DNA of 64,000 nucleotides from a virus. Its lineage: Duplodnaviria > Heunggongvirae > Uroviricota > Caudoviricetes. Positions 4,438 through 63,679 of this stretch are shown here, piece after piece (the first letter of the stretch is position 1; every line of letters starts with the position of its first letter). The position numbers were made by a program, and so were the translations under genes. The stretch lies in IMG/VR virus record IMGVR_UViG_3300029736_000004. One strand, given 5' to 3'. Below the pieces are notes generated by a model. It was not told where the DNA came from. It saw only the letters and a program-made list of their open reading frames with translations, and searched no databases.

Positions 4438-5132
4438 CGTTTGCTATCTTCCTCACACCCAAGATATGAAAGAGATGTAATTGCTTTTGCACGGAAACCA
4501 CCAACCTTGCTAAGTGCGCTTTTAAGTGCGTCAAGGTCAGATTGTGATTTGATCATGAAAGTTAACCGCGCAATTCCAGACATAGAGTCAGAACCATTCA
4601 CTGCGTTGTAGTGATATATGTATCGGGTGACTGATTGAGTCACGCCCTCCTGCTGGTGGTTTATATTGGCGTCCTGTCTTGTGTTGGCCTGCTCCAACTC
4701 TTCGATACGTTCAGCCATCGCAGCACACTCTTCAAAGTTGCTTAATGCTTTTCGCTCCGATTCAGCGCATTGTTTTTCCAGTTCTGCTATGCGCTTACCT
4801 CCATCCGCGATTACTCCCTCGTAATGCTCGCGCTGCTCGTTGAGTTTTGATTTTGCCGACTCCAGTTGTTTTGTTAGTTCCACAATACGGCAAACATCGT
4901 TGATACGCGTTTCCTCTAATGCGTTGATCTCATCCAGTAGTGCCAAAGCAACCTTGGGATTAAAGGCAGCAATAAATTCAGCGTTGTTTTTCAGAACGTG
5001 TTGCGCAATGGCCTGACTACTTAGTCGGACCTCATAACCACGTGCGCCACGGTGTGGTTTATATGAGTCCCAGTCTCCCCACGTTGCTTTCACTGCCGCC
5101 TCACGCAGTGCCTGGTAATTAATTTCGCTCAC
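4434..5132 (-). CDS. Ead/Ea22-like family protein
   Basis: N-terminus [13 protein letters not shown] typical of lambdoid Ead/Ea22-like proteins; coiled-coil middle; start overlaps upstream stop. Confidence 0.6.
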   Translation of the reverse strand: MSEINYQALREAAVKATWGDWDSYKPHRGARGYEVRLSSQAIAQHVLKNNAEFIAAFNPKVALALLDEINALEETRINDVCRIVELTKQLESAKSKLNEQREHYEGVIADGGKRIAELEKQCAESERKALSNFEECAAMAERIEELEQANTRQDANINHQQEGVTQSVTRYIYHYNAVNGSDSMSGIARLTFMIKSQSDLDALKSALSKVGGFRAKAITSLSYLGCEEDSKR

Positions 5133-13909: not shown

Positions 13910-14079
13910 AATGACCGTTCGCTATCTCAACTTTCAAATCCAGAACATCACTGGCGGTTGCTATGACTGGTTTGTCACTCTCGGAAAAGAAGTGATCACC
14001 GGAAAGCTGGATGAAGTGAAAGCTAAAGCAATGGCCTACGCCTGCAAGCAAGCCCAAAAGAAGAAAAGAAAAGCATAAT
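13910..14079 (+). CDS. small ORF (56 aa, Lys-rich C-terminus)
   Basis: ATG with GGGGG RBS; below the ORF-track cutoff; followed by an intrinsic terminator. Confidence 0.25.
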
Positions 14080-14184
14080 AAAACACACAGTTGCGCCCTG
14101 GCATTATCGTGGGGTATATTTCTACGGCACCTTAGAAAAACGGGTGCCGGGATTGGAACCCCGGATAATGTCAAAGGCGACACA

Positions 14185-14206
14185 GACGCCGAAAGCGTCT
14201 TTTTTT
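14185..14206 (+). terminator. intrinsic terminator-like hairpin
   Basis: GACGC-CGAAA-GCGTC followed by TTTTTTT. Confidence 0.45.
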
Positions 14207-14224
14207 GTGTCATGCCATCGCGCA

Positions 14225-14330
14225 GCCATACGTAGCGTTTAGCTCAGAGATCAATGGTAGTGCTGGCTGGGCTGCCGAAAGGCAGGCCGGTTCCCTTTGA
14301 CGCCGGTAGTTCCAACCCAGTCAGTGCTAC
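14225..14330 (+). ncRNA. c4-like antisense RNA (immI-type), approximate bounds
   Basis: Contains GGTTCC, CCTTTGAC and GTTCCAA complementary to TTGGAACC and GTCAAAGG found upstream (14151-14177) and over the icd RBS (14341-14383); local hairpins. Confidence 0.4.
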
Positions 14331-14391
14331 CGCCATTGAGATTGGAACCTCACGCGGTAGCTCCTTAACTTAGTCAAAGGAGGCTGCCAAT

Positions 14392-14607
14392 ATGGCTACT
14401 ATCCCCACCCCAACTCATTCTGAATTTATCTGGCGTTTCTATTCCTGCCAAAAACACCTCTATATCTGCGTCATGGCTGCTACCGAAGCAGAAGCGCGCT
14501 CATACCTTCCCGAAGAACCCTGCATTTTTGCTGCTCGCTTCACTCTTGATGCGATGGAGATCCTCAATTACTGGAATCTGCCGATGAACTGCGTGGAGGT
14601 GCACTGA
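14392..14607 (+). CDS. icd: Icd-like host cell division inhibitor
   Basis: 71 aa with EFIWRF motif typical of P1 Icd-like proteins; AGGAGG RBS; stop overlaps ant start. Confidence 0.6.
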   Translation: MATIPTPTHSEFIWRFYSCQKHLYICVMAATEAEARSYLPEEPCIFAARFTLDAMEILNYWNLPMNCVEVH

Positions 14608-15548
14608 TGAATCTGTCCATCTCTCAAAAAGCGACAATGACCAGTATTGAAATCGCGGAACTGGTAGGTAAGCGTCATGATAATGTGAAGCGTACCATTG
14701 AAGTATTAACTAAAGGTGGTGTCATTCAATTTCCTCAAATTGAGGAAATTGAAAATAAACAATCAGTTGGCCCTCGTCGATTTTCCAAGGCTTACATCTT
14801 TGAAGGCGAACAAGGCAAGCGTGACAGTATCATTGTCGTTGCGCAGCTCTCTCCGGAATTCACCGCCCGGCTGGTGGACCGCTGGCGCGAACTGGAGAAT
14901 GCCAGGGGACCGTTAAAATCAAAAGCCGAAATCCTGGCTGAAATGGCGCAAATGCATCTTGAGCATGAACGCCGGATCAACGCTGTTAATGCCCAGGTAG
15001 CCGAAGTATCGGCACAAGTGTCCAAAGTCGCTGAAACCGTCGAGCAGATCAAGAAAGGCAACATACCAGAAGGTTACATTGGCTATCGCCAGTTAGCGGC
15101 GAAATGCGGCCTGACTGAAGCCAAATGCCGCAACCTGGTCAACGCTTACCGGATCCCCACAGATACGCATGAGTTTTTGACTCCCGACGGTTTGCTTGCG
15201 CGACGCTCAATTGTGGCCCTGGCCCCCTTCCGGAAAGCCTTTAAGCAGGTGATGTCGGAGGCAGAACCACGTAACAAACGCTGGTATCATCCCAGGATGG
15301 GGCTATTTCAGGCCATTCACCATCCTGTGCCTGAAAGTCCAAAGGCAAACCTGTCGTTGCATACCGCCAGAGAGAAGATTAAAACAGGGTATGCAACCGT
15401 ATGCCGTCGAGCATCCTGGCCTGAAAGTGTCTGGGTATGGCCCGAAAGAGGCTCACGGAAAAACTGGCGCACCATTCGCGACGGCAAGATCTGTGCGATT
15501 GATTTACAGCCAGAAGATGTAGCAGCGACCGACTGGATTGTTAGTTAA
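14607..15548 (+). CDS. ant: antirepressor (Rha/Ant family)
   Basis: N-terminal SIEIAELVGKRHDNVKR Rha-type motif; translationally coupled to icd (TGATG overlap). Confidence 0.65.
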   Translation: MNLSISQKATMTSIEIAELVGKRHDNVKRTIEVLTKGGVIQFPQIEEIENKQSVGPRRFSKAYIFEGEQGKRDSIIVVAQLSPEFTARLVDRWRELENARGPLKSKAEILAEMAQMHLEHERRINAVNAQVAEVSAQVSKVAETVEQIKKGNIPEGYIGYRQLAAKCGLTEAKCRNLVNAYRIPTDTHEFLTPDGLLARRSIVALAPFRKAFKQVMSEAEPRNKRWYHPRMGLFQAIHHPVPESPKANLSLHTAREKIKTGYATVCRRASWPESVWVWPERGSRKNWRTIRDGKICAIDLQPEDVAATDWIVS

Positions 15549-15555
15549 TAGATTT

Positions 15556-15580
15556 GCCCCGGTCATGCCGGGGCTTTAAC
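15556..15580 (+). terminator. terminator-like hairpin after ant
   Basis: GCCCCGG-TCATG-CCGGGGC followed by TTTAA. Confidence 0.35.
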
Positions 15581-15586
15581 TACTAA

Positions 15587-15925
15587 GTGACCGGACACAG
15601 CAAAATGTATGCCACGAAAAAAATTGATTTCACTTATTCTTCCGCCACAATTGAGCGGCGCTTCACCCTCATTAGAGAGTTGGAACTGTCAAAAGTCTGG
15701 TATCAAATTCTACTGGATGAAGAGTTCTCACTGATGATAATGGCTGAAAAAGAAGCAATGCCGAATGACCGGCATAAAGTCATTGCCAGCCTTGACCTGG
15801 TGACAAACAGATACTGGGAGACAGAGGAACTGCGTGAAGCGGGAGTAATTCGTGACCTGATGGAGAGTTCCGTTCCCCGCCGCTATCGTGCGGGAAACGA
15901 AATCTCCGTGATTAAAGGGGCTTAA
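15587..15925 (+). CDS. hypothetical protein (112 aa)
   Basis: ORF only. Confidence 0.35.
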   Translation: MTGHSKMYATKKIDFTYSSATIERRFTLIRELELSKVWYQILLDEEFSLMIMAEKEAMPNDRHKVIASLDLVTNRYWETEELREAGVIRDLMESSVPRRYRAGNEISVIKGA

Positions 15926-16314
15926 AGCTCACCAGCACGCTGTTTTTCAAGCGTAGATTTAACATTGGGCGCTTTCCCTTTAAAAGAATGGAAAGTGCCA
16001 CATTTTTCTGTTTTAACCTCGCGCAGAGCTTCGCCATCGGCATTCTGCCATTGATGAGATAACGTCATATCACCACGAGAAGGAACATCCAGCGAGTACA
16101 ACGTGTAAGTTCCCCCCATCTCGGCATACTCCTGGAACACATAGCTCATTACGTCAGATTCAGTTTTCCGGTGCGCGTTATCGACCTTATTCCCATTCAG
16201 AAATATGGCGTTCGGATAGATTTTTATATCAAACCTACCGCACTTCACTTGTAAATTCCCGGCATGAGCGATCAAAGGGAAAGCTGCCAATAAAGCAATA
16301 GCTAATCTTTTCAA
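15922..16314 (-). CDS. secreted protein (signal peptide, two Cys)
   Basis: MKRLAIALLAAFPLIAHA signal peptide. Confidence 0.5.
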   Translation of the reverse strand: MKRLAIALLAAFPLIAHAGNLQVKCGRFDIKIYPNAIFLNGNKVDNAHRKTESDVMSYVFQEYAEMGGTYTLYSLDVPSRGDMTLSHQWQNADGEALREVKTEKCGTFHSFKGKAPNVKSTLEKQRAGEL

Positions 16315-16334
16315 TTCTGCCTCCGCTGCGTAAC

Positions 16335-16955
16335 TTATTGCCCGTATTGTTTACACCATTGCTCTGCCATTTGTGGGGCTAAAGGCCCAGCCACTGCGCT
16401 GTATTCTGCTGTTTTGCTTTGCACGCATGAGGCAGATGGTTTTTTATTGCGCTGTTCCTTGAGTTGTTTTTCATAGGCAACGATGGCATCGAAACCAGCT
16501 ACATCTTCCTCCCTCATGAACCCTTTCTTGATCAGAAACTGCTGACCTTCCGGCACCAATGCTAGAGCATACAACGGCTGCAACAGCTCCCCCAATCCTT
16601 CCCGGCTATAAACTTGAAACTGCATCCAGCTTTTACTTAACGCTGTCATAGTGTCTTTGGTGGAATAGCCAGCCTTGCGTATAGCCTTGTCTAATCGATC
16701 TGCTGAATACGCAAACAAACAGAAATCGCCCTTTCCTGTAAACCCCGGTTCAACCGGTTGCAACGTGATATTTTCTTTTTCGCAAAAGTCTATAAATTCA
16801 TCAGGTCTATCGGTTTTATAGTCCCGCAATACCTTCAGTCCAGCCTCATACTTTGCAGGTAACGCGCCTGCATAGGCAGCATTAAGAGAAACTCCCCCCA
16901 ATATAACCGCGAGCACTGCTCCCAAAACCCTTAACTTCACAAAACCATCCTTCAT
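16335..16955 (-). CDS. secreted protein (signal peptide)
   Basis: Start taken at MKDGFVKLRVLGAVLAVILGGVSLNAAYA; the ORF extends upstream to 17096. Confidence 0.45.
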   Translation of the reverse strand: MKDGFVKLRVLGAVLAVILGGVSLNAAYAGALPAKYEAGLKVLRDYKTDRPDEFIDFCEKENITLQPVEPGFTGKGDFCLFAYSADRLDKAIRKAGYSTKDTMTALSKSWMQFQVYSREGLGELLQPLYALALVPEGQQFLIKKGFMREEDVAGFDAIVAYEKQLKEQRNKKPSASCVQSKTAEYSAVAGPLAPQMAEQWCKQYGQ

Positions 16956-17170
16956 GTAAAAAAACTGAAGTTTTATGTTACAAAAGCAAACATGTACGCC
17001 AAAATGACCTAGGCCAAATTCAGCGCGAATAAAAAATTCAAAAAAATTGTTGACACTATTCTGGAAATCACAATCTGGACAAAATCCATTACGCAAACGG
17101 CTCCCGTTGAAGGTTCTTTTGACGACTAACTTTCAGCCGATGCGCGGTAGGGAGTCATAACGCCAAAGCA

Positions 17171-17194
17171 GGCCGCCATGTGCGGCCTTTTTTT
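17171..17194 (+). terminator. intrinsic terminator in the leader of the 17221 gene
   Basis: GGCCGC-CATGT-GCGGCC followed by TTTTTTT, 27 nt upstream of the start codon. Confidence 0.5.
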
Positions 17195-17220
17195 GTGCCT
17201 GCTATCGTGGAGTAAAAGCC

Positions 17221-17874
17221 ATGCAAAAGATCGCAATATTCAGCCTTTCTACTAACAAGCCGCTGATGGCTACAGCAGTCCTGAAAGACGGCGCGCTTGT
17301 AATTGACAAAGTAAAGCCCCTCCCTGCATCTGCAATTGAGCAAAAACGAAAAATTCCACCAGCAATTGCCGAGCTGCGTAAAAGTGAATTTAAGGTGCTG
17401 GTTGACGAAATCACGCCAACCATTTCAGCCGGTACAGGGGCCAGTCAGGTAACATTAAAAACACGGCACGCCGACGGCAGAGCGGCGATCATTGTCGGCA
17501 TGGAGAGATACCGAGAGCTGAAACTACAAAGACTGCTATCCCTGCCTGACAAGAACAAAGGGGCATTCGAGATCCCCGACTCTATCGTCGATACCGAATA
17601 CAACGGCAACGGTGAAGAGGTTTATCGAGTTAACTGGCAAGATATCCGACCAGAGCACATCCTGATGATTCTGTGCTGCTATGCAACGGTATACCACAAT
17701 GTTGCCAGCGCGGATTACCTGAAACAAATGACAGGAGCGGTAGAGAAAGAAAACAAAGCAGGGATAATGGCCTCGTTCCTGTCAATTATCAGCGATCAAA
17801 AAGCTAAAGCAGGAAATACCCAACCAAAATCGCTGGCCGGGCAAGTAATTGATGAAGATACGGTGATACTTTAA
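17221..17874 (+). CDS. hypothetical protein (217 aa)
   Basis: ORF with GGAG RBS; no recognisable motif. Confidence 0.5.
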   Translation: MQKIAIFSLSTNKPLMATAVLKDGALVIDKVKPLPASAIEQKRKIPPAIAELRKSEFKVLVDEITPTISAGTGASQVTLKTRHADGRAAIIVGMERYRELKLQRLLSLPDKNKGAFEIPDSIVDTEYNGNGEEVYRVNWQDIRPEHILMILCCYATVYHNVASADYLKQMTGAVEKENKAGIMASFLSIISDQKAKAGNTQPKSLAGQVIDEDTVIL

Positions 17875-18210
17875 TCAACTCAGTAGCTTTGTTAACTCCC
17901 TTAATACAAGGTAGAAGAGTAACAAAAACACTGACGTGGATACCTGCTGAGTTAAAGAAGCACTAATGAATTTATTCAATAAATCAATCAGCTTATTAAA
18001 AATATTCATCTTTTCGAATCCATTCGATCGGTAAATAACACCCAGCTCACTATCGAGCTGGTCCATGCCTTAAGATTAATGAAAGTCACTTGTTGACAGT
18101 CAATAAATTCCAGGGCGGCGAAAAAACTCTGTCTATACGGATAGTGCTTGCATTTTGCTCTTTCTGCGTGTAGCGTATATACACAGGTTACACGCACGAA
18201 TGGAATTATT

Positions 18211-18492
18211 TTGATTAAGTCATTTCGCCATAAAGGGCTTGAACGCTTTTTCAAGACAGGTTCAACCGCAGGCATTCAGGCCAAACATGCGGTTAAGCTA
18301 CGCATTCAATTGACTGCGCTTAATACAGCTAAACGCCCGGACGATATGTCTGCGCCTGGATGGGAATTGCACCCTCTAAAGGGGGCGGACCTTAAAGGTC
18401 ACTGGGCAATATCGGTAAACGGTAACTGGCGACTTACCTTCCGATTTGAAGGAGAAGACGCAATTCTAGTTGACTATCAGGATTATCATTGA
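18211..18492 (+). CDS. higB: HigB-type toxin (RelE/ParE superfamily, plasmid maintenance killer)
   Basis: (M)[13 protein letters not shown] ... HPLKG ... WRLTFRF ... YQDYH matches the HigB killer-protein family; TTG/ATT start inferred. Confidence 0.8.
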
Positions 18493-18500
18493 GGAACACT

Positions 18501-18782
18501 ATGAGTCGTATGCATAATCCCGCGCATCCAGGCGCGGTTCTTCGTGAATATTTGGGAGACATGTCAGTCACAGACGCCGCTGCTGCATTAGGCATTACTC
18601 GCACGGCGCTTTCCCGAATTCTGAACGAAAAAGCAGGTATTTCTGCTGATATGGCACTTCGTCTGGAGTCCGCTCTTGGAACCAGTGCCGAAATGTGGAC
18701 CGGTATGCAATCCCAGTATGAGCTTTGGGTTGCTTCGCAAACCACTCGCCCAAACATCCGTCCATTATTTTTCCACGCATAA
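18501..18782 (+). CDS. higA: HigA-type antitoxin (HTH, XRE family)
   Basis: [10 protein letters not shown]...[20 protein letters not shown]; GAGG RBS; immediately downstream of higB. Confidence 0.8.
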
Positions 18783-18874
18783 TTTCACAGCGTCACCAAG
18801 CCAGGTGGCGCTGCTTTCTCGCATTTCACACCCTGCATACAGTTCCCCCCAGGTTATGACTGTGAGGAACTGTT

Positions 18875-19204
18875 ATGAGTTACAGCAGGCTCGACGATCG
18901 ATGCATTGAAGACGATGTGCTGCGCGCACTATTCCATCAGGAGATGATCAAGCGGGTATCGGAGTATCACTCCGATAATTTCCAGTACACGATAAAAATT
19001 GATGAGGTTTATCGCTCAGACCTGGCGGCCTATCGCGCCTATGGCAACGCTGATTTGCGCTGGGTATTTCGCGTGCTGGTGGGCCATGAGTCAGAAATGG
19101 AAGAAATGCCGGTCGGGACAACGTTAACTCTTCCTGACGCAGCATGGCTAAGAAACAAGATTCGCGATTACGCTGGCTCGGCACCGGAGATAGAAAATGC
19201 CTGA
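18875..19204 (+). CDS. hypothetical protein (109 aa)
   Basis: ORF; overlaps start of next gene. Confidence 0.45.
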   Translation: MSYSRLDDRCIEDDVLRALFHQEMIKRVSEYHSDNFQYTIKIDEVYRSDLAAYRAYGNADLRWVFRVLVGHESEMEEMPVGTTLTLPDAAWLRNKIRDYAGSAPEIENA

Positions 19205-20402
19205 CTTCCTGAAAAATCAGGACGGGCGATATATCACTGACGGCCTGTCCTCTAAGGATTTCACACGCGTATTTGAACTCATCAGGAAAGAGCAAAACCG
19301 CAAACGCCGCCAGGCGCACAGGACACTCACGCCGGGCAGGCTTAGGAATAAATCAGCCGAAGACATTCTTAAGCTGGGGAAAAAGAAAGGCGGCACGTTC
19401 TTTACGCGTGACGATCTGAAAGGCTTCGAAAAGCTGCGAAGCAAAGCTCGCGAAAAATACGACAGCAAGACGGCTGGCATTACATACGCACAACTGGTAG
19501 CGTCCAGCCAGGCTATCGATATTAAGCGAGCAAATAACGCCGTAGACGACGGTTCTGGTATCAAAAGAGCTACGCCCGTATCTCTTCGTCACAATGTGAT
19601 TAATATCCGCGTGGAAGCGTCCGATATATCCGTTCACCAGCACCACATTGTCCGGGTACGTTTTGAAGAATGGGATCAGATGGTCGATGACATCGCAGAA
19701 GACGATAAATCAGCCCTGAAAGTCACAAAATCACTGTGTGCCGGGCGAGTGTCTTTCGATTGTGACTGCGGTCGCCATCAATACTGGTATCGCTACATCG
19801 CCACTGCGGGTAACTTTGCCCTGGCCCCGCCAAAAGAATACGCCTATCCAAAAGTTCGCAACCCTAAGCTGCAAGGCGTCGCCTGTAAACATGTGATCCA
19901 CTCAATGACACGACTACAGTCTGCCAGTTGGCAGATGAGTATTGCTCGCGCCCTGCAAAAAGCTGCAACGCAAGTTGCCTTTGGTGACGATCGCCGCCGC
20001 ACGACAAAACACTTCACAAAAGAAGACGAGAAGGCGTTCAATCGAAACCGTAGCAGCAAAACGAATGTTGAGGCAGCTAAACGTGAATGGAAGCTCTATC
20101 AGAAACGCCAGGCCGCTTTAAGCTCAAAACTGGCAAAGGACAACGGTAAGATCGACAAGCTGCGCGACCAACTGACCAGGGCCAGAAAGTTATCCGACGC
20201 ACAGAAAAAACGGGCAGCGGCAAAAGAAGCTGCTTTGCAACGGGAGAAGCAGAAAAACAAGGAACTTCAGCAACGCCTTGCTGATCAGTTCGCACTGAAG
20301 AAGCAGGCGTTCATTGATGCGCTTGTTATGGCAGGAACACCACCAGCACAAGCCGAAAAGATGTTCATGGCGTATGTGAAGAACAACGTAAAAAATGTAT
20401 AA
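19197..20402 (+). CDS. hypothetical protein with CxC...CxH zinc-finger-like motif and Lys/Ala-rich coiled-coil tail
   Basis: SFDCDCGRHQ...GVACKHV motif; C-terminal 120 aa highly charged and helical. Confidence 0.45.
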   Translation: MPDFLKNQDGRYITDGLSSKDFTRVFELIRKEQNRKRRQAHRTLTPGRLRNKSAEDILKLGKKKGGTFFTRDDLKGFEKLRSKAREKYDSKTAGITYAQLVASSQAIDIKRANNAVDDGSGIKRATPVSLRHNVINIRVEASDISVHQHHIVRVRFEEWDQMVDDIAEDDKSALKVTKSLCAGRVSFDCDCGRHQYWYRYIATAGNFALAPPKEYAYPKVRNPKLQGVACKHVIHSMTRLQSASWQMSIARALQKAATQVAFGDDRRRTTKHFTKEDEKAFNRNRSSKTNVEAAKREWKLYQKRQAALSSKLAKDNGKIDKLRDQLTRARKLSDAQKKRAAAKEAALQREKQKNKELQQRLADQFALKKQAFIDALVMAGTPPAQAEKMFMAYVKNNVKNV

Positions 20403-20603
20403 GTGTTTGCAAGGACATGAATAGTACACTATTATGATGGTGAAGGAATGGTACATGTTGAACCAAACCTTCGAGGATGCAGCAGACTGAAGAAATTCAG
20501 ACATCCCGCAACCAGCTATCATAACAGGTCAAACCAGTTGTGATACTTGGTCAAGGCAAAGTCCGGTAATGGCGTTCTGAATACCAGAAAATAATTTCTG
20601 GCG

Positions 20604-20634
20604 AAGCCCACCTTAAGGTGGGCTTTGTTATTTT
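20604..20634. terminator. terminator-like hairpin
   Basis: AAGCCCACC-TTAA-GGTGGGCTT followed by T-rich tract. Confidence 0.4.
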
Positions 20635-21167
20635 GGTGGCTTAGGAAGCGGTTTGTTCCTTAACAGATTGTATGCGATTGCGAAAAACTTCACTGACCTG
20701 CCATTTGGTTTTTCTGATACCGGGTAGGCGCTAGTGATGTGTAACCGCAACTTTTTCTTTTCCCTGAAAGCCTTAAACGCAACAAAATAATACTCCTTGT
20801 TACCCTCCCCAATATTTACCTCAATAACGGCATAGCTTCCGTATCCGGCATGGATCACCTTACCTTCCGACAATGACAGAATTGCCTCTTTTAAGTGAAG
20901 TTTGGCAAGATTATAGCGACGCTCACAAAATGGACGAGACTCTTTAGGGGCGTGGTACATTAACGCCAGTTTCTCTTCCTCAGTCTGGTGTGCATAGTCT
21001 TTTGTGAAGCAGTGAAAAGAGTACGTAACCCAAAAGCGATACTCTATCGGTTGCTTTCCTTCTTGTTGCTGAACAAACACAGCCTGATGAGCATCAAGAA
21101 ATGACAAATCACGAATAACACCATCAGGGTGTTCAAATGCTCGCCACTTTTCAACTTCCTGACTCAC
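20628..21167 (-). CDS. hypothetical protein (179 aa)
   Basis: Isolated minus-strand ORF between plus-strand operons. Confidence 0.45.
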   Translation of the reverse strand: MSQEVEKWRAFEHPDGVIRDLSFLDAHQAVFVQQQEGKQPIEYRFWVTYSFHCFTKDYAHQTEEEKLALMYHAPKESRPFCERRYNLAKLHLKEAILSLSEGKVIHAGYGSYAVIEVNIGEGNKEYYFVAFKAFREKKKLRLHITSAYPVSEKPNGRSVKFFAIAYNLLRNKPLPKPPK

Positions 21168-21318
21168 TGTCTCTCCTTAAATTTCAACCGAGCAATGATA
21201 CCGCACCTCTGATAGTTTTCGCCTCCCCAATCTACATAAATCTCCTGTCAGCAAACAAATCACAATCTCCCGAAAATCTTCCTTTCGATACCTGATAAAT
21301 CGACCTTTGAGGACGCTT

Positions 21319-32704: not shown

Positions 32705-32784
32705 GCTATTGACTAAATAACAAAGTGAGTATTGTCACCTCGTCAAAAGAATCTTCACGCCGCGCCCGAATTTAGGGTTTAACC

Positions 32785-34482
32785 GTGAACAAGAACATTG
32801 AGCCAGCTCGTAAGCGCGAGCGCGAGATTATGAATCGGGCGGCAAGCGTCATGGCTATGACCGTCGATCCAACCACTGATGCTGCCGGTAACATGATTGC
32901 CGACAACGAAGTGATGATGGCTAACCTGGAAAAAGCTATCCAGAAAGAGCCTATGTTTGAAGGCGTTGAACCAGAAGCAGCTCGCCAGATCATTGGTAGC
33001 TGGGCCATGTCTATTCATGAATACAAACGCCAGTATGGGCATTATCCGGCAAGCGATGTATTAGCCAACGCCCATGTAGCACTTGAGCGCCTGATGATGG
33101 AGTCCGCTAAAGAGACTCATGAAGGCGCTGGCAAAGCCATGTTTGAATCAGTAGCCAAGGACATGCGCACCTCCGATGGTGTAATGAAGGTTGCACAATA
33201 TGCCGCACTGATCCTGCCTGCTTCTCTCGGCGCAGCCACCAGCGACGCATGTACGTTTATCCCTTGTGATCGTGATGAAACCAATATTTACGAGCTGACC
33301 AACGTTGCTGGTACAAAATTCGGTACATTCGAGCAGGGCGATGAACTGAACATGCAGTCTGCTGGAGTGTATTCGCAGATGAAACGCCTGTACATCCTGA
33401 CCGAAAAAGGAGATGGCAGCAAAACCACCTTCCAGTTTGATATCCAGAACTTCGAAGGCCAGGCCTGCCCACTGCGCCAGGGCTACAACAAACTGCTGAT
33501 TAACCGCAAACCGTCCAAAGTAGATGATGGTGACGGCAACCTGTATTTCAACGACAAAGACGTCAACGGCAACTCTTTCTCTGTGACGGCAAAGGTTCGA
33601 TACGATACCGGCGTTATCGATATCACCTTTAATGAAGCACCAGCAGAAGGCACAGAAATCGCTGTTCAGGTTGAAATCAACATTGAACGCAATCCGAACC
33701 TGATACCTGTCATTAACCAGTCCATGCGCAATTACGCCCTGCGCCCGTCGGAGTACGTGATCGCATCCGAACATACGGTTATGGCTGCATCTGACCTGAG
33801 CCGTGAACACGGACTCGAACTGGCAGCATTGCAATTCTCTGCAATGCGCAACTGGATTTCCCACGAAATCGATATGATGCGCCTGCGCACTCTGGTATTC
33901 CACACCGTTTACGGTCGTGAATTTGATGTGGCACTGCCAGAAGCGCAGAACTACGAGTCGTGGGTTGGTTTAATTCGCCATGTTGTGAACGCGCTGTCAC
34001 AGGAGATGGCTGACCGCACCCTGACTACCGGTATCCGTGGTGGCTTTGCTGGTGGCGATGCTGCTAACTTCCTGCGTTCCTTACCGCCGCAGCACTTCCA
34101 GTTGGCACCGGGCTATGTACAGTCGCCGTACATTCAATACATCGGCACCCTGTTTGGTTCCATTCGTATCTACGAAGTGCCGAAGCCTATCTGCAAACAA
34201 TTCCAGAAATATGGCTACGACTTCGGCCTGGACGACATCTATTTCTATGGTCGTGGCGAAGGCATTGGTAAAGCAGGCCTGGTCGCAGGTGATGCTGTGC
34301 CTGCTATTCCGTATGTCCACGAAACAAATCCAGCCCTGGTGAACCGCACCACTTTCTGGGGCAAAGCAATCAACGATGTGCATCCGCGCAACGGTGAGAA
34401 CTATTTCACTCGCCTTCGCCTGACACGTTCGAAAGAAGGTGCGATTGACATGTTGAGCGGGCAAATCAACGAAAAAAAGTAG
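32785..34482 (+). CDS. putative major head protein (by position upstream of the sheath)
   Basis: 565-aa ORF, GTG start; heads a block followed by Ig-like, sheath and tube genes; assignment positional only. Confidence 0.35.
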   Translation: MNKNIEPARKREREIMNRAASVMAMTVDPTTDAAGNMIADNEVMMANLEKAIQKEPMFEGVEPEAARQIIGSWAMSIHEYKRQYGHYPASDVLANAHVALERLMMESAKETHEGAGKAMFESVAKDMRTSDGVMKVAQYAALILPASLGAATSDACTFIPCDRDETNIYELTNVAGTKFGTFEQGDELNMQSAGVYSQMKRLYILTEKGDGSKTTFQFDIQNFEGQACPLRQGYNKLLINRKPSKVDDGDGNLYFNDKDVNGNSFSVTAKVRYDTGVIDITFNEAPAEGTEIAVQVEINIERNPNLIPVINQSMRNYALRPSEYVIASEHTVMAASDLSREHGLELAALQFSAMRNWISHEIDMMRLRTLVFHTVYGREFDVALPEAQNYESWVGLIRHVVNALSQEMADRTLTTGIRGGFAGGDAANFLRSLPPQHFQLAPGYVQSPYIQYIGTLFGSIRIYEVPKPICKQFQKYGYDFGLDDIYFYGRGEGIGKAGLVAGDAVPAIPYVHETNPALVNRTTFWGKAINDVHPRNGENYFTRLRLTRSKEGAIDMLSGQINEKK

Positions 34483-37431: not shown

Positions 37432-38049
37432 ATGGTGGCCTGTTTGGGAGAAATAGCAGTGATTTGCGGCGCGATCATGGCAGACGGCATAAGCCCGCTA
37501 ATGAAAGCCTACATCAAGTCAAGTGAGGATATGGTAGTCGGATATATCGGCGAAGGTTCCTCTGCCGAACTATCGTCTCTGTGGCAGTCGCCATTTGAAG
37601 ATAAAGCGATGGGCAGCATGTTAGGCGCTATTAGCGAGGCTGCATCATCTCTTGCAGGCATCGTGCAGACATCATCAGGGTACACGAGTAAAAGCCGGTT
37701 CAACTCCACCCTCGTGTGGGAAGGGCAACAACCGCCGGAATTTACCCTTGTCCTGGATTTTTTAGCTACATCCAGCGCAAAAATTGAGGTGAATGACGCC
37801 ATCACGACGTTGCTGAAAATGGCATCGCCAGAACTAAACGACATTACGCCTTTTGGTCGAGTCCCGGAGGCCGTAACGATAAATATCGGCAGGAACGTGA
37901 TGTTAACGAACGTTGTGATCAAAAGCGTCAGCTATCAGCTTGACGCCCCGCGCACATCGGAAGGCTATTTCACCCACAACACGGTCACTCTGCAATGCAG
38001 TGGCAACACATCTATTAACCGCAGCAATATCTCATCTGTTTTTGTTTAG
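37432..38049 (+). CDS. tail component (hypothetical)
   Basis: ORF between sheath and tube genes. Confidence 0.4.
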   Translation: MVACLGEIAVICGAIMADGISPLMKAYIKSSEDMVVGYIGEGSSAELSSLWQSPFEDKAMGSMLGAISEAASSLAGIVQTSSGYTSKSRFNSTLVWEGQQPPEFTLVLDFLATSSAKIEVNDAITTLLKMASPELNDITPFGRVPEAVTINIGRNVMLTNVVIKSVSYQLDAPRTSEGYFTHNTVTLQCSGNTSINRSNISSVFV

Positions 38050-48790: not shown

Positions 48791-48861
48791 AAGACCACTG
48801 GAAATCACAAACTGAACATACTGCCCTTCGATTTATTGCTTGTTAAAGGGGCTATGTTCGT

Positions 48862-59534: not shown

Positions 59535-61220
59535 ATGGCAACGAAAGACAAAAACAAGGGCTTTCTGTCGGCATTGAAGAAAGCCTTCAGCGGTGGTGAT
59601 GTTACGCCTGCCGATCCGGTCGTATTTGCGAGCGGGCATAGCGTCGTTGCTCGTTCTGGCCTGTCCGCCTTGCGTCCTGGCATCCTGGGGAGCAATAGCG
59701 ATGGCATGACAAGCGCGGCGGATACTGTATCTATATCGGCAGAATTACCGAGTGACCGCCTGCAAAAATACAACATACTGGAGACGATGGCGAAAAGTCC
59801 GACTATCTCCACAGCATTAAACATTCACATTGCGCATTCTCTGGCTCCATCAAAAAAAACAGGCCTCGCATTTATTCTCTCTCCGAAAAATGGGGCGGAT
59901 AAGGAGGCTGTAAGTCGATGTGAGGAATTGACCGCTGATTTAAGCTCAATGATTAATGATGGCCTGCCATCGTGGGCCATGATCATGGCTATTTTCGGTG
60001 TGTCGTATATCCGTCCATATGCAGAGCAAGGGAAGGGGATAACTGGAATTGAGTCGAGCTATTACACGCTCCCTCATTTCGTTCAGGAGTTTTATCGCGG
60101 TAGCCAACTTGTCGGATTCAGCGGTGATTATATTCTGGATACGCATACTTTGCGCAGAGTTATAACCGAACCGTGGAATCTGGTTTCCATGAAAAACCCG
60201 TACTGGATGCCTCAGCATAAAGTAATGCCAGTAACTTACGGCACTAACGGCTATTCCTTGCTTAGTGAACAGCAGGACAAGCCGTTAATGGAGACGCAGA
60301 ACTACGGTACGTCGTTTCTTGAATACAGTTATGAACCCTACCTGAATTTATGTGCCGCGCTTGCTGCGCTGAAAGCAACGCGAAACAACGCTGCAAAAAT
60401 TGATCGCCTGATTGCACTCACAACGAACACGATAGATCCGGTAAACGCGGCGAATTATACGCGCGGGGTCAGCCAGGCACTGAAGCGTCATAGCGACCTC
60501 GTAGCGCAACGGTCGATTAATTCTAATGCTCTCCCATCTGTACTTAACCATCTGATACCCGTCATGGGGGATGGGAAGAACGGGATCACCATTGATACGC
60601 AATCTATACCCGCAGATATCAGTGGTATCGAAGACGTTATGTTTCATCTCCGACAGCTCGCGGCAAGCCTCGGTATTGACGCAACAATGCTTGGCTGGGC
60701 TGATCAGATGAGTGGTGGACTTGGAGAAGGCGGTTGGCAGCAAACAGCTATCCAGGCCGCCTTACGCGCGAACTGGATCAGACAGGCCGCCCAGCGGACT
60801 ATTTATCGGCTTCATGACATTCACCTCGCTTATAAATACGGGAAGGTTTACACCGAAAAAAACCGTCCTTATGACGTGCAATTCAACTCAATGAACACAG
60901 CTATCCAGGAAGAGGAAAACCGAGAGCTGGATGCGCGCGCCAACTTCGTAGCTGTCATCTCGCAAATAATGGACCAGATCCAGAACAACCCGAAACTGGC
61001 GGGTAGCGACGCGTTTATGCGTTATCTGTTCACCGAACAGCTTCGTATCGACGATGACACTCTCAACGTAATGATCAAAGAGTTTAAGGCGAATGAATCA
61101 GAGCAAAACAACGAGCATGGTATGTACGAATCCGCGCCGTTGTCGTCCGGTGACGATCCGGAAAACTGGACGCAAGAACAATTAATCAACTTTGCAAAAT
61201 TTGTGATGAGCAATAATTAA
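59535..61220 (+). CDS. putative portal protein (assignment weak)
   Basis: 561 aa, precedes a protease/scaffold-like gene; no Walker motif. Confidence 0.3.
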   Translation: MATKDKNKGFLSALKKAFSGGDVTPADPVVFASGHSVVARSGLSALRPGILGSNSDGMTSAADTVSISAELPSDRLQKYNILETMAKSPTISTALNIHIAHSLAPSKKTGLAFILSPKNGADKEAVSRCEELTADLSSMINDGLPSWAMIMAIFGVSYIRPYAEQGKGITGIESSYYTLPHFVQEFYRGSQLVGFSGDYILDTHTLRRVITEPWNLVSMKNPYWMPQHKVMPVTYGTNGYSLLSEQQDKPLMETQNYGTSFLEYSYEPYLNLCAALAALKATRNNAAKIDRLIALTTNTIDPVNAANYTRGVSQALKRHSDLVAQRSINSNALPSVLNHLIPVMGDGKNGITIDTQSIPADISGIEDVMFHLRQLAASLGIDATMLGWADQMSGGLGEGGWQQTAIQAALRANWIRQAAQRTIYRLHDIHLAYKYGKVYTEKNRPYDVQFNSMNTAIQEEENRELDARANFVAVISQIMDQIQNNPKLAGSDAFMRYLFTEQLRIDDDTLNVMIKEFKANESEQNNEHGMYESAPLSSGDDPENWTQEQLINFAKFVMSNN

Positions 61221-63546: not shown

Positions 63547-63679
63547 TCAGGCTTATATTCATGCCGTCGTAGCAAATTCTGCGACCGGGTTTAGCAGCCT
63601 GAATGTTAGTGCGGACAACCGCAGATATCCGATATTGCGGTATTTTTGTGTCCGTAAAACCGCGTTACGCCCAAATTAT

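Follow-up and report, generated by a model that had tools for sequence, protein, structure and literature searches.

The sRNAs DsrA, RprA and ArcZ (small RNAs, sRNAs) open the self-inhibitory leader of rpoS, and FasX and RoxS pair with the extreme 5′ ends of the ska and yflS mRNAs, respectively, and stabilize them. In Stx phages, the transcript that starts at pR′ and ends at tR′ is itself a functional sRNA, StxS, which base-pairs in trans (PMC7547250). StxS is the closest precedent for the element described here, which lies directly before the mat homologue of the IMG/VR virus record IMGVR_UViG_3300029736_000004 (Caudoviricetes), a stretch of 64,000 nucleotides that is referred to in its entirety as the window. 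As judged from the sequence identity of the ~1 kb around the element, the window belongs to a D6-like (P1-related) phage-plasmid, with 79% identity to phage D6 and 98.6% identity to ~90-kb plasmids of Escherichia coli and E. marmotae. The original prediction for this locus saw only the hairpin of an intrinsic terminator; the terminator stands, but a conserved three-way junction of ~75 nt upstream of it was missed, as was its complementarity to the leader of gene 23, 15.5 kb away.

We consider it likely that the hairpin terminates an sRNA gene which doubles as the leader of mat, and that this gene yields a late, trans-acting sRNA complementary to the mRNA of gene 23, which encodes the major capsid protein. 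Most likely, the element encodes a regulatory small RNA that has escaped annotation and that phage P1 also carries. It is best regarded as a new late sRNA family that is widely conserved among P1-like phages. The element itself, its conservation, fold and promoter motif, and its complementarity and co-variation with gene 23 were computed directly. No description of such an RNA was found in the searchable literature, and an earlier mention in the key genome papers (Lobocka 2004; Gilcrease & Casjens 2018) is possible. At gathering thresholds, no family of Rfam 15 matches the element; at E ≤ 10, Rfam returns only chance-level matches in 16850-17350, the best being asX2 (17.8 bits) and isrK (14.7 bits).

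The predicted RNA is ~100 nt long and spans positions 17092-17194 on the plus strand, its 5′ end being placed from the −10 hexamer and its 3′ end in a T-run. All of its parts are given on the same strand. The closing stem, P1, pairs the strand GGCUCCC (17099-17105) with GGGAGUC (17150-17156); it is seen in minimum free energy (MFE) folds and carries compensatory changes at five of its seven pairs. Stem P1 encloses two hairpins and is followed by a linker of 13-16 nt and then by the terminator hairpin, P4. Hairpin P2 (17108-17135) has the stem UGAAGGUU/AACUUUCA and a 12-nt loop, CUUUUGACGACU, and is supported by folds, covariation and complementarity to gene 23; its large loop carries CUUUUSAC and has unpaired probabilities mostly of 0.5-1.0. 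Hairpin P3 (GCCG-AUGCG-CGGU, 17136-17148) is short and carries GCGCGG, which is invariant in types A-H; the pairing of P3 with the gene 23 leader was read from the sequence.

This element stands directly before mat in 11 sequence types (A-K), including phage P1, which were collected by a pattern scan of viral contigs and by retrieval of Mat-encoding loci. The types comprise phage-plasmids of Escherichia, Salmonella, Shigella, Enterobacter, Klebsiella, Citrobacter and Pantoea as well as metagenomic viral contigs. Within each type the RNA core is invariant, in contrast to the promoter and the spacer that leads to the ATG. Identity to D6 and ~120 plasmids is ~90% over the non-coding positions 17040-17225, above the level of the flanking genes, and a distant Enterobacter plasmid keeps 17099-17194 and not the sequence upstream, with changes that preserve pairing. 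When folded independently, seven of the 12 sequences (6 of the 11 types, phage P1 included) adopt the same architecture as their MFE structure. A covariance model based on A and B recovers types C-H (E values of 1e-7 to 1e-11), and a second model recovers types I and J. The models score 114-134 bits at 17091-17196, which is the sole strong hit in the window; no further copy was found in the 64 kb or in the retrieved loci.

In an alignment fitted to the model, a procedure that favours structure and inflates pair counts, 92.4% of cells pair and double-sided changes occur in 11 of 26 pairs. This level of covariation was reached by none of 500 shuffles, and controls in which the alignment was slid gave at most 4 pairs. 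Other pairings were considered and rejected. Tertiary contacts between L2 and L3 and between L2 and the linker are not conserved between types. A conserved leader peptide was likewise rejected, the AUG at 17140 being absent in D6.

The second line of evidence is the complementarity to gene 23. When the window was scanned for the complement of the invariant P2 loop, TCGTCAAAAGAA occurred once outside the element, at 32740. Here the seed (17108-17125, UGAAGGUUCUUUUGACGA), which comprises the 5′ strand of P2 and most of its loop, forms 18 contiguous pairs (17 Watson-Crick, one G-U) with site 1 (UCGUCAAAAGAAUCUUCA, 32740-32757, +). Its own antisense aside, the RNA has no longer contiguous complement in 64 kb. 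The open reading frame (ORF) at 32785 is gene 23; site 1 follows the −10 of its late promoter at a distance of 5 nt and would therefore be the extreme 5′ end of the gene 23 mRNA. One nucleotide beyond it lies site 2 (GCCGCGC, 32759-32765, +), which is complementary to GCGCGGU of P3 (17142-17148). A separate G-U-rich seed match of 14 nt (48840-48853, +) lies over the Shine-Dalgarno sequence of an R-like tail-fibre gene.

Pairing between the two loci was then compared across the six sequence types (seven genomes) with both loci, types E, F, H, I and J being left out, and the observed contiguous pairing was set against 2000 dinucleotide shuffles. In type A, the window, UGAAGGUUCUUUUGACGA meets UCGUCAAAAGAAUCUUCA in the 18 pairs already described, a run that no shuffle reached. 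The same is true of D6, where UGAAGGUUCUUUUGACG and CGUCAAAAGAACCUUCA form 17 Watson-Crick pairs. Type B has 17 pairs, three of them G-U (UGAGGGUUCUUUUGACG with UGUCAAAAGAACUUUCA; 1/2000 shuffles), type G has 14 Watson-Crick pairs (GAGGUUUUUUGGCG with CGCCAAAAAACCUC; 2/2000) and type D has 12 pairs (GGAAUUUUUGAC with GUCAAAAGUUCC; 39/2000), with a natural variant of the type D target, GUCAAAGAUUCC, also pairing fully. Phage P1 forms 13 pairs (UGGAUCCCUUUUC with GAAAAGGGAUUCA; 63/2000), and type C forms 10 contiguous pairs (UACUUUUGAC with GUCAAAAGUA; 360/2000), followed by a 1-nt bulge and six further pairs.

In every genome compared, the 5′ strand and loop of P2 meet the first 13-18 nt after the −10 of gene 23. 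Relative to type A, compensatory double changes occur in type C (U-A to A-U), type D (two) and type G (two), and the pairing in phage P1 uses entirely different sequences at both loci. The compensatory change in a conserved seed that is expected of a trans-acting base-pairing sRNA was thus found across the six types (seven genomes), and the promoter motif and terminator predicted to delimit a discrete transcript are both present and conserved. A matrix of full-length duplex energies was uninformative, as G+C-rich terminators pair promiscuously, and seed segments were compared instead. In this matrix the cognate partner is the best one for type G (−23.9 against −15.7 or weaker), for phage P1 (−21.2 against −7.3 or weaker) and for type D.

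A different reading, which we regard as unlikely, treats the element as a purely cis-acting attenuator: the three-way junction would bind a small ligand or a protein, such as Mat or some other late protein, and so set read-through into mat and genes 26 and 25, and the complementarity to gene 23 would be without function. A closing stem with two hairpins and an intrinsic terminator before a coding sequence is the layout of many riboswitch and attenuator leaders, the element is always directly before mat, mat mostly heads a baseplate and tail operon, and a nuclease-like Mat would plausibly be kept low. However, the mat leader shows neither conserved junction nucleotides nor a match in Rfam, and no conserved alternative (antiterminator) pairing was found in the element; the one candidate, between GCGG of P3 and CCGC of the terminator, was rejected because it is absent in types I and J. 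Riboswitch-attenuators also need no complementarity in trans, which the mat-leader RNA has, and it would be left unexplained why P2 co-varies, in six sequence types, with a site at a distance of 15-55 kb. The cis-acting and trans-acting roles are not mutually exclusive.

The shared sequence could also be explained without RNA pairing, by a DNA site of 13-18 bp common to both loci in opposite orientation and bound by a phage protein whose specificity shifts between phages. Both copies do lie within ~40 bp downstream of a late −10, and operator-like sites are known to co-vary between heteroimmune phages. We nevertheless consider this explanation distinctly improbable. The other late promoters of the window have no such site, the mat-side copy lies inside a hairpin whose other strand co-varies with it, and sites 1 and 2 follow the same 5′-to-3′ order at both loci, so that the loci are not a single composite DNA element present in two orientations. 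In addition, the non-Watson-Crick positions inside the duplexes, where the copies differ, are mostly G-U, and pairing between RNAs therefore fits better than a shared double-stranded site.

The sRNA predicted here appears to have a late promoter of its own. The equivalent of LPmat at 17064-17085 (+) consists of a −22 box, GAAATCACAATC (17064-17075), four nucleotides and the −10 hexamer CAAAAT (17080-17085), with no −35, which is the arrangement of P1-type (Lpa/SspA-dependent) late promoters. The sequence TTGACA at 17050-17055 (+) is 24 nt upstream of the −10, too distant for a normal −35; TTGAC is kept in types A and C-H and in phage P1, and not in the Enterobacter type B. The assignment is based on recurrence of the motif and on its position, which matches that of the annotated LPmat of phage P1. 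In the window, the consensus (G/C)AAAT(C/A)ACA(A/C)(A/T)C-N4-hexamer recurs on the plus strand at 21256, 32714, 41288, 48801, 53321, 57111 and 59481, 49-71 nt before the start codons of late operons that begin at 21307, 32785, 41347, 48862, 53375, 57160 and 59535, and the motif is also found at 4551 (−). These operons include homologues of tail (gene 7), capsid (gene 23), PmgB, R, holin and portal genes, the phage P1 counterparts of which bear the annotated late promoters LP23, LPsit, LPs, LPdar and LPpro.

The promoter of gene 23 itself (32714-32735, +) has the box TAAATAACAAAG and the −10 TATTGT; LP23 of phage P1 is annotated as predicted. Late promoters in phage P1 share ACAAGTGACTT-N4-TANNNT. 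The D6-type consensus differs from this box and resembles its reverse complement; GAAATCACAATC, likewise, resembles the reverse complement of the palindromic phage P1 box AAGTGACTT at 6 of 9 positions. At mat the motif-to-ATG distance is 157 nt, and the extra ~100 nt corresponds to the folded RNA and the terminator. We infer that the mat-leader transcript starts near 17092 and is made late in lytic growth, with activation by Lpa predicted. As a separate observation, a perfect P1-type late promoter box (ACAAGTGACTTTCATTAATCT) is present on the minus strand at 18093-18073 and is identical in D6 (7186-7166). It would drive a 63-aa ORF (18066-17875, −; phrog_38362) that converges on mat, and transcription from it would be antisense to mat.

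These findings bear on how the locus had been interpreted. The original prediction proposed regulated read-through, and its main components are supported: a promoter, here placed in 17050-17090, release of a short RNA, and expression of mat by read-through only. Regulation of that read-through is another matter: neither a Q-like factor nor any sign of regulated antitermination was seen, although no search for Q homologues was made in the window. The small RNA, which had been offered as one half of an alternative, is much the stronger half because of the conserved fold, the covariation and the trans target. The parallel drawn with the lambdoid late promoter and tR′ is a formal likeness only, since the promoter is P1-type (Lpa-type) and not a constitutive pR′ with qut.

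Antitermination of a processive kind was also considered, with the leader acting as an RNA like HK022 put, or as the target of a hypothetical phage P1 antiterminator, that lets RNA polymerase ignore terminators. Like put, the element is a folded RNA that is encoded in cis immediately after a phage promoter and is linked to read-through of a terminator, and antiterminators have been suspected in phage P1, although none has been demonstrated (PMC10695390). HK022 put forms two tandem stem-loops and is present at both early operons, whereas the mat leader is a closed three-way junction with its own terminator. Two tandem stem-loops downstream of each regulated promoter were not found; the element occurs once in 64 kb with at least eight late operons, and a general antitermination site was dropped as a candidate role for this reason. 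Placement before a strong conserved terminator would, moreover, make that terminator pointless. The resemblance of UUCUUUUGACGA to boxA is loose and was not used as support. In our view, this explanation has very little probability.

The terminator itself (AGGCCGC-CAUGU-GCGGCCU plus U7, 17170-17194, +) was identified from the sequence, a consensus scan and folding. The stem strands GGCCGC (17171-17176) and GCGGCC (17182-17187) flank the loop CATGT (17177-17181), as had originally been proposed for the coding strand, and with the T7 run (17188-17194) the feature is confirmed at 17171-17194. A17170 and T17188 form a seventh pair, so that the first U of the run closes the stem. The hairpin thus has seven pairs, six of them G-C, around a 5-nt loop and folds alone at −12.5 kcal/mol. 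In a consensus scan of 14000-21000 it ranked second. The same region holds 19 terminator-like sites, about twice the 8.3 expected from shuffles, and a single match to the pattern is therefore weak evidence. What lifts this terminator above chance is its conservation before mat in all 11 sequence types: a hairpin GGCCGC..GCGGCC (GCCGCC..GGUGGC in phage P1) with a U-rich tail directly precedes the mat ribosome-binding site in each. The loop varies across types and the stem is kept, with the U-rich tail degenerate in type D. With a G+C-rich hairpin and an immediate U-run, the feature has the form of a true intrinsic terminator, at which RNA polymerase is predicted to stop.

No plus-strand gene lies upstream, as the original prediction had stated. 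The sole upstream neighbour is a simB-like gene on the minus strand (16335-16955), and the terminator is therefore not the end of any plus-strand gene. That the hairpin is a plain terminator or insulator with a functionless RNA, for example against the convergent late transcript from 18093, seems highly improbable, because, although that minus-strand promoter points through mat to the hairpin and an A-tract precedes the hairpin in several types, the minus-strand hairpin is followed by GCUUUGGCG, a poor U-tract, and 75 nt of invariant, co-varying structure and the complementarity to gene 23 would be left unexplained.

The gene downstream is the mat homologue (17221-17874, +; 217 aa), which was identified by homology and a predicted RNase-H-like (terminase-nuclease/RuvC-like) fold and is preceded by the Shine-Dalgarno sequence GGAG (17209-17212, +). 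The gap between hairpin and start codon is short, as had been noted, but the distance from the T-run to the ATG is 26 nt and not 27. As these 26 nt include the Shine-Dalgarno sequence, mat would be reached only by read-through of the terminator. Mat of the window has 85% amino-acid identity to D6 orf78 and 33% to phage P1 Mat (‘maturation control’). Its structure model (pLDDT 80) resembles, by Foldseek, the RNase-H-like nuclease domain of the large terminase and RuvC (E 3e-4, TM 0.43-0.47), and the acidic residues D62, E63, D85 and D165 are invariant. Roughly 1,000 plasmids encode Mat, for which no Pfam family was found. On the basis of this model, Mat may be a DNA-maturation nuclease, and a strong late promoter giving mainly a short RNA would suit a nuclease of which little is needed. 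In most lineages mat is the first gene of an operon that also contains baseplate and tail genes. In other lineages the gene 26/25 homologues come directly after mat; in the window a HigB/HigA-like toxin-antitoxin pair (18148-18782) is inserted between them.

The counterpart in phage P1 appears to have been hidden by annotation. Annotated phage P1 Mat (AF234172.1) has a 38-residue N-terminal extension that no homologue shares, and the homologous start is the ATG at 2828 (MDKKICVV), with GGGGG before it. This ATG is likely to be the true start of phage P1 mat. The over-long annotation (2716-2830 region) overlaps the folded leader and terminator. Between the −10 of annotated LPmat (2691-2696) and ATG 2828 the layout is the same as in the window: a closing stem (GCCCGGUAC/GUACCGGGC), a first hairpin (AUGGA[UCCCUUUUCAAAUAU]UCCAU), a second hairpin (GGAC[GGCACA]GUCU), a linker, and the terminator GCCGCC-GCUG-GUGGC followed by U4CU6. 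A Vibrio relative was found to be without such a mat leader.

The leader of gene 23 gives some indication of the direction of control. In the window it is predicted to form a self-inhibitory fold (32754-32789, +), in which an outer helix, UUCACG/CGUGAA, includes the GUG start at 32785 and an inner hairpin, GCCC/GGGU, covers the Shine-Dalgarno sequence. The fold is common to types A-D and G, five D6-like lineages. Across them, the outer helix joins the 3′ end of site 1 (UUCACG, CUCGCAG or CUCAC) to the start region (CGUGAA, UUGUGAG or GUGAG), with one compensatory pair, and the inner hairpin GCCC/GGGY hides the Shine-Dalgarno sequence. In the free leader the start codon has an unpaired probability of 0.00-0.10; when site 1 is held single-stranded, as if bound, this rises to 0.26-0.85 in types A-D. 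In type G the start region is freed only when site 2 is also blocked. Positive control is favoured because the Shine-Dalgarno sequence and the GUG are buried by a fold whose 5′ strands each site overlaps or directly adjoins. The chances are about even that the sRNA would control capsid synthesis positively, by opening the start region, by protecting the 5′ end of the mRNA, or by both means. The effect may instead be negative, for example through cleavage of the 16-18 bp duplex by RNase III or through a delay of capsid synthesis.

Taken together, the following sequence of events can be proposed. The Lpa-type promoter at 17064-17085 would fire late in lytic growth, and the first ~100 nt of the transcript would fold as a three-way junction in which stem P1 encloses P2 and P3. 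Most transcripts would end at the U-run (17188-17194) and release a discrete sRNA, and a minority would read through into mat, a probable nuclease plausibly wanted at a low level. The accessible loop of P2 (CUUUUGAC) would nucleate pairing in trans with the extreme 5′ end of the gene 23 mRNA. Pairing would then spread into the 5′ strand of P2, giving 18 bp in the window, and GCGCGGU of P3 could pair with the second site, 1 nt further on. The most likely outcome would be positive control of capsid synthesis. A wider proposal is put forward more tentatively, as one that falls somewhat short of an even chance: P1-like phages may use a dedicated late sRNA, co-transcribed with mat, to license the translation and/or stability of the capsid mRNA, and this may have been overlooked because the phage P1 mat frame is annotated 38 codons too long.

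Several points weigh against the interpretation as a trans-acting sRNA, in addition to the inflated pair counts mentioned above. The 5′ end, 3′ end and abundance of the sRNA are predictions from sequence, as are the efficiency of termination, action in trans and the sign of regulation. The U-tract of type D is poor (UUUCGCCUUUU), and termination there may be weak. RNAalifold, run on a plain MAFFT alignment of nine types, recovers only P4 and two pairs of P3; recovery is poor because indels misalign stems P1 and P2, and the covariance-model alignment was used instead. The D6-type covariance model misses the element of phage P1 (E = 0.46, in the right place), the relatedness of which therefore rests on position and architecture. 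The cross-locus comparison is based on six sequence types (seven genomes), among which the 10-nt run of type C is not significant alone and the support from type D and phage P1 is modest. Site 2 is invariant in types A-H and carries no covariation, and sites 1 and 2 pair non-collinearly, so that a loop-loop geometry is required. Two other sites in the window, at 59566 (+) and 37575 (−), tie with gene 23 in duplex energy; the first (59566-59595) lies in the 5′ coding region of the portal gene and the second (37546-37575) is antisense. Finally, blocking the sites leaves the start region closed in phage P1 and largely so in type G, and activation by opening is therefore not general. All types tested share the predicted pairing at the extreme 5′ end of the gene 23 mRNA.

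The window contains further RNA elements. An isrK-like RNA (Rfam match, 14127-14205) immediately precedes a C4 antisense RNA (14250-14337) and icd/ant, and a second C4 (63674-63759) is found near the end of the window with an a1/b1 target element (63553-63605). The two C4/isrK regions point to two immI-type modules in the window. A full-length match to sroH (113 bits, 20441-20626), with a strong terminator at its end (20599-20630), lies just 3′ of the gene 25 homologue.

Phage P1 is among the most used model phages, and its late control has so far been described as Lpa and eleven promoters. If the proposed role is correct, a post-transcriptional layer would be added to virion production, the ‘mat’ region of phage P1 would encode an overlooked RNA regulator of head synthesis, and its mat annotation would be corrected. 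It would also be a rare case of a phage sRNA that regulates a structural gene of its own phage. The arrangement would explain how abundant RNA but only small amounts of a potentially harmful nuclease could be made from a single promoter. Clinical Enterobacteriaceae commonly carry D6/P1-like phage-plasmids, and the D6-type element is present in 100 of 5,426 complete E. coli genomes.

In comparison with known systems, the mat-leader RNA combines features that are otherwise found apart. As with the sRNAs that activate rpoS or stabilize ska and yflS, the start region of the target is hidden by the target's own leader, and the pairing site, at the 5′ end of the mRNA, overlaps the inhibitory strand; the mat-leader RNA differs in that the sign of regulation for gene 23 is predicted and that in phage P1 the predicted pairing leaves the start region closed. 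The C4 (P1/P7) and CI (P4) antisense RNAs (RF01695) occur in the same phages and likewise have a closing stem with two hairpins and two short sequences that pair with two nearby sites in a target leader. However, C4 is processed from the immI operon, has a role in immunity and represses icd-ant, whereas the mat-leader RNA has its own terminator, a late promoter and gene 23 as its predicted target; C4 covariance models match 14250 and 63674 in the window and not 17091-17196. In StxS and lambda 6S, as here, an intrinsic terminator stands between a late promoter and the first late gene, and in both of those systems the terminated leader is a stable RNA. They have no sequence or Rfam relationship to the mat-leader RNA, and their pR′ is constitutive with read-through set by Q at qut, in contrast to an Lpa-type mat leader at which no Q or qut is evident. 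StxS targets stx1 and the host rpoS, whereas the mat-leader RNA is complementary to the capsid mRNA of its own phage.

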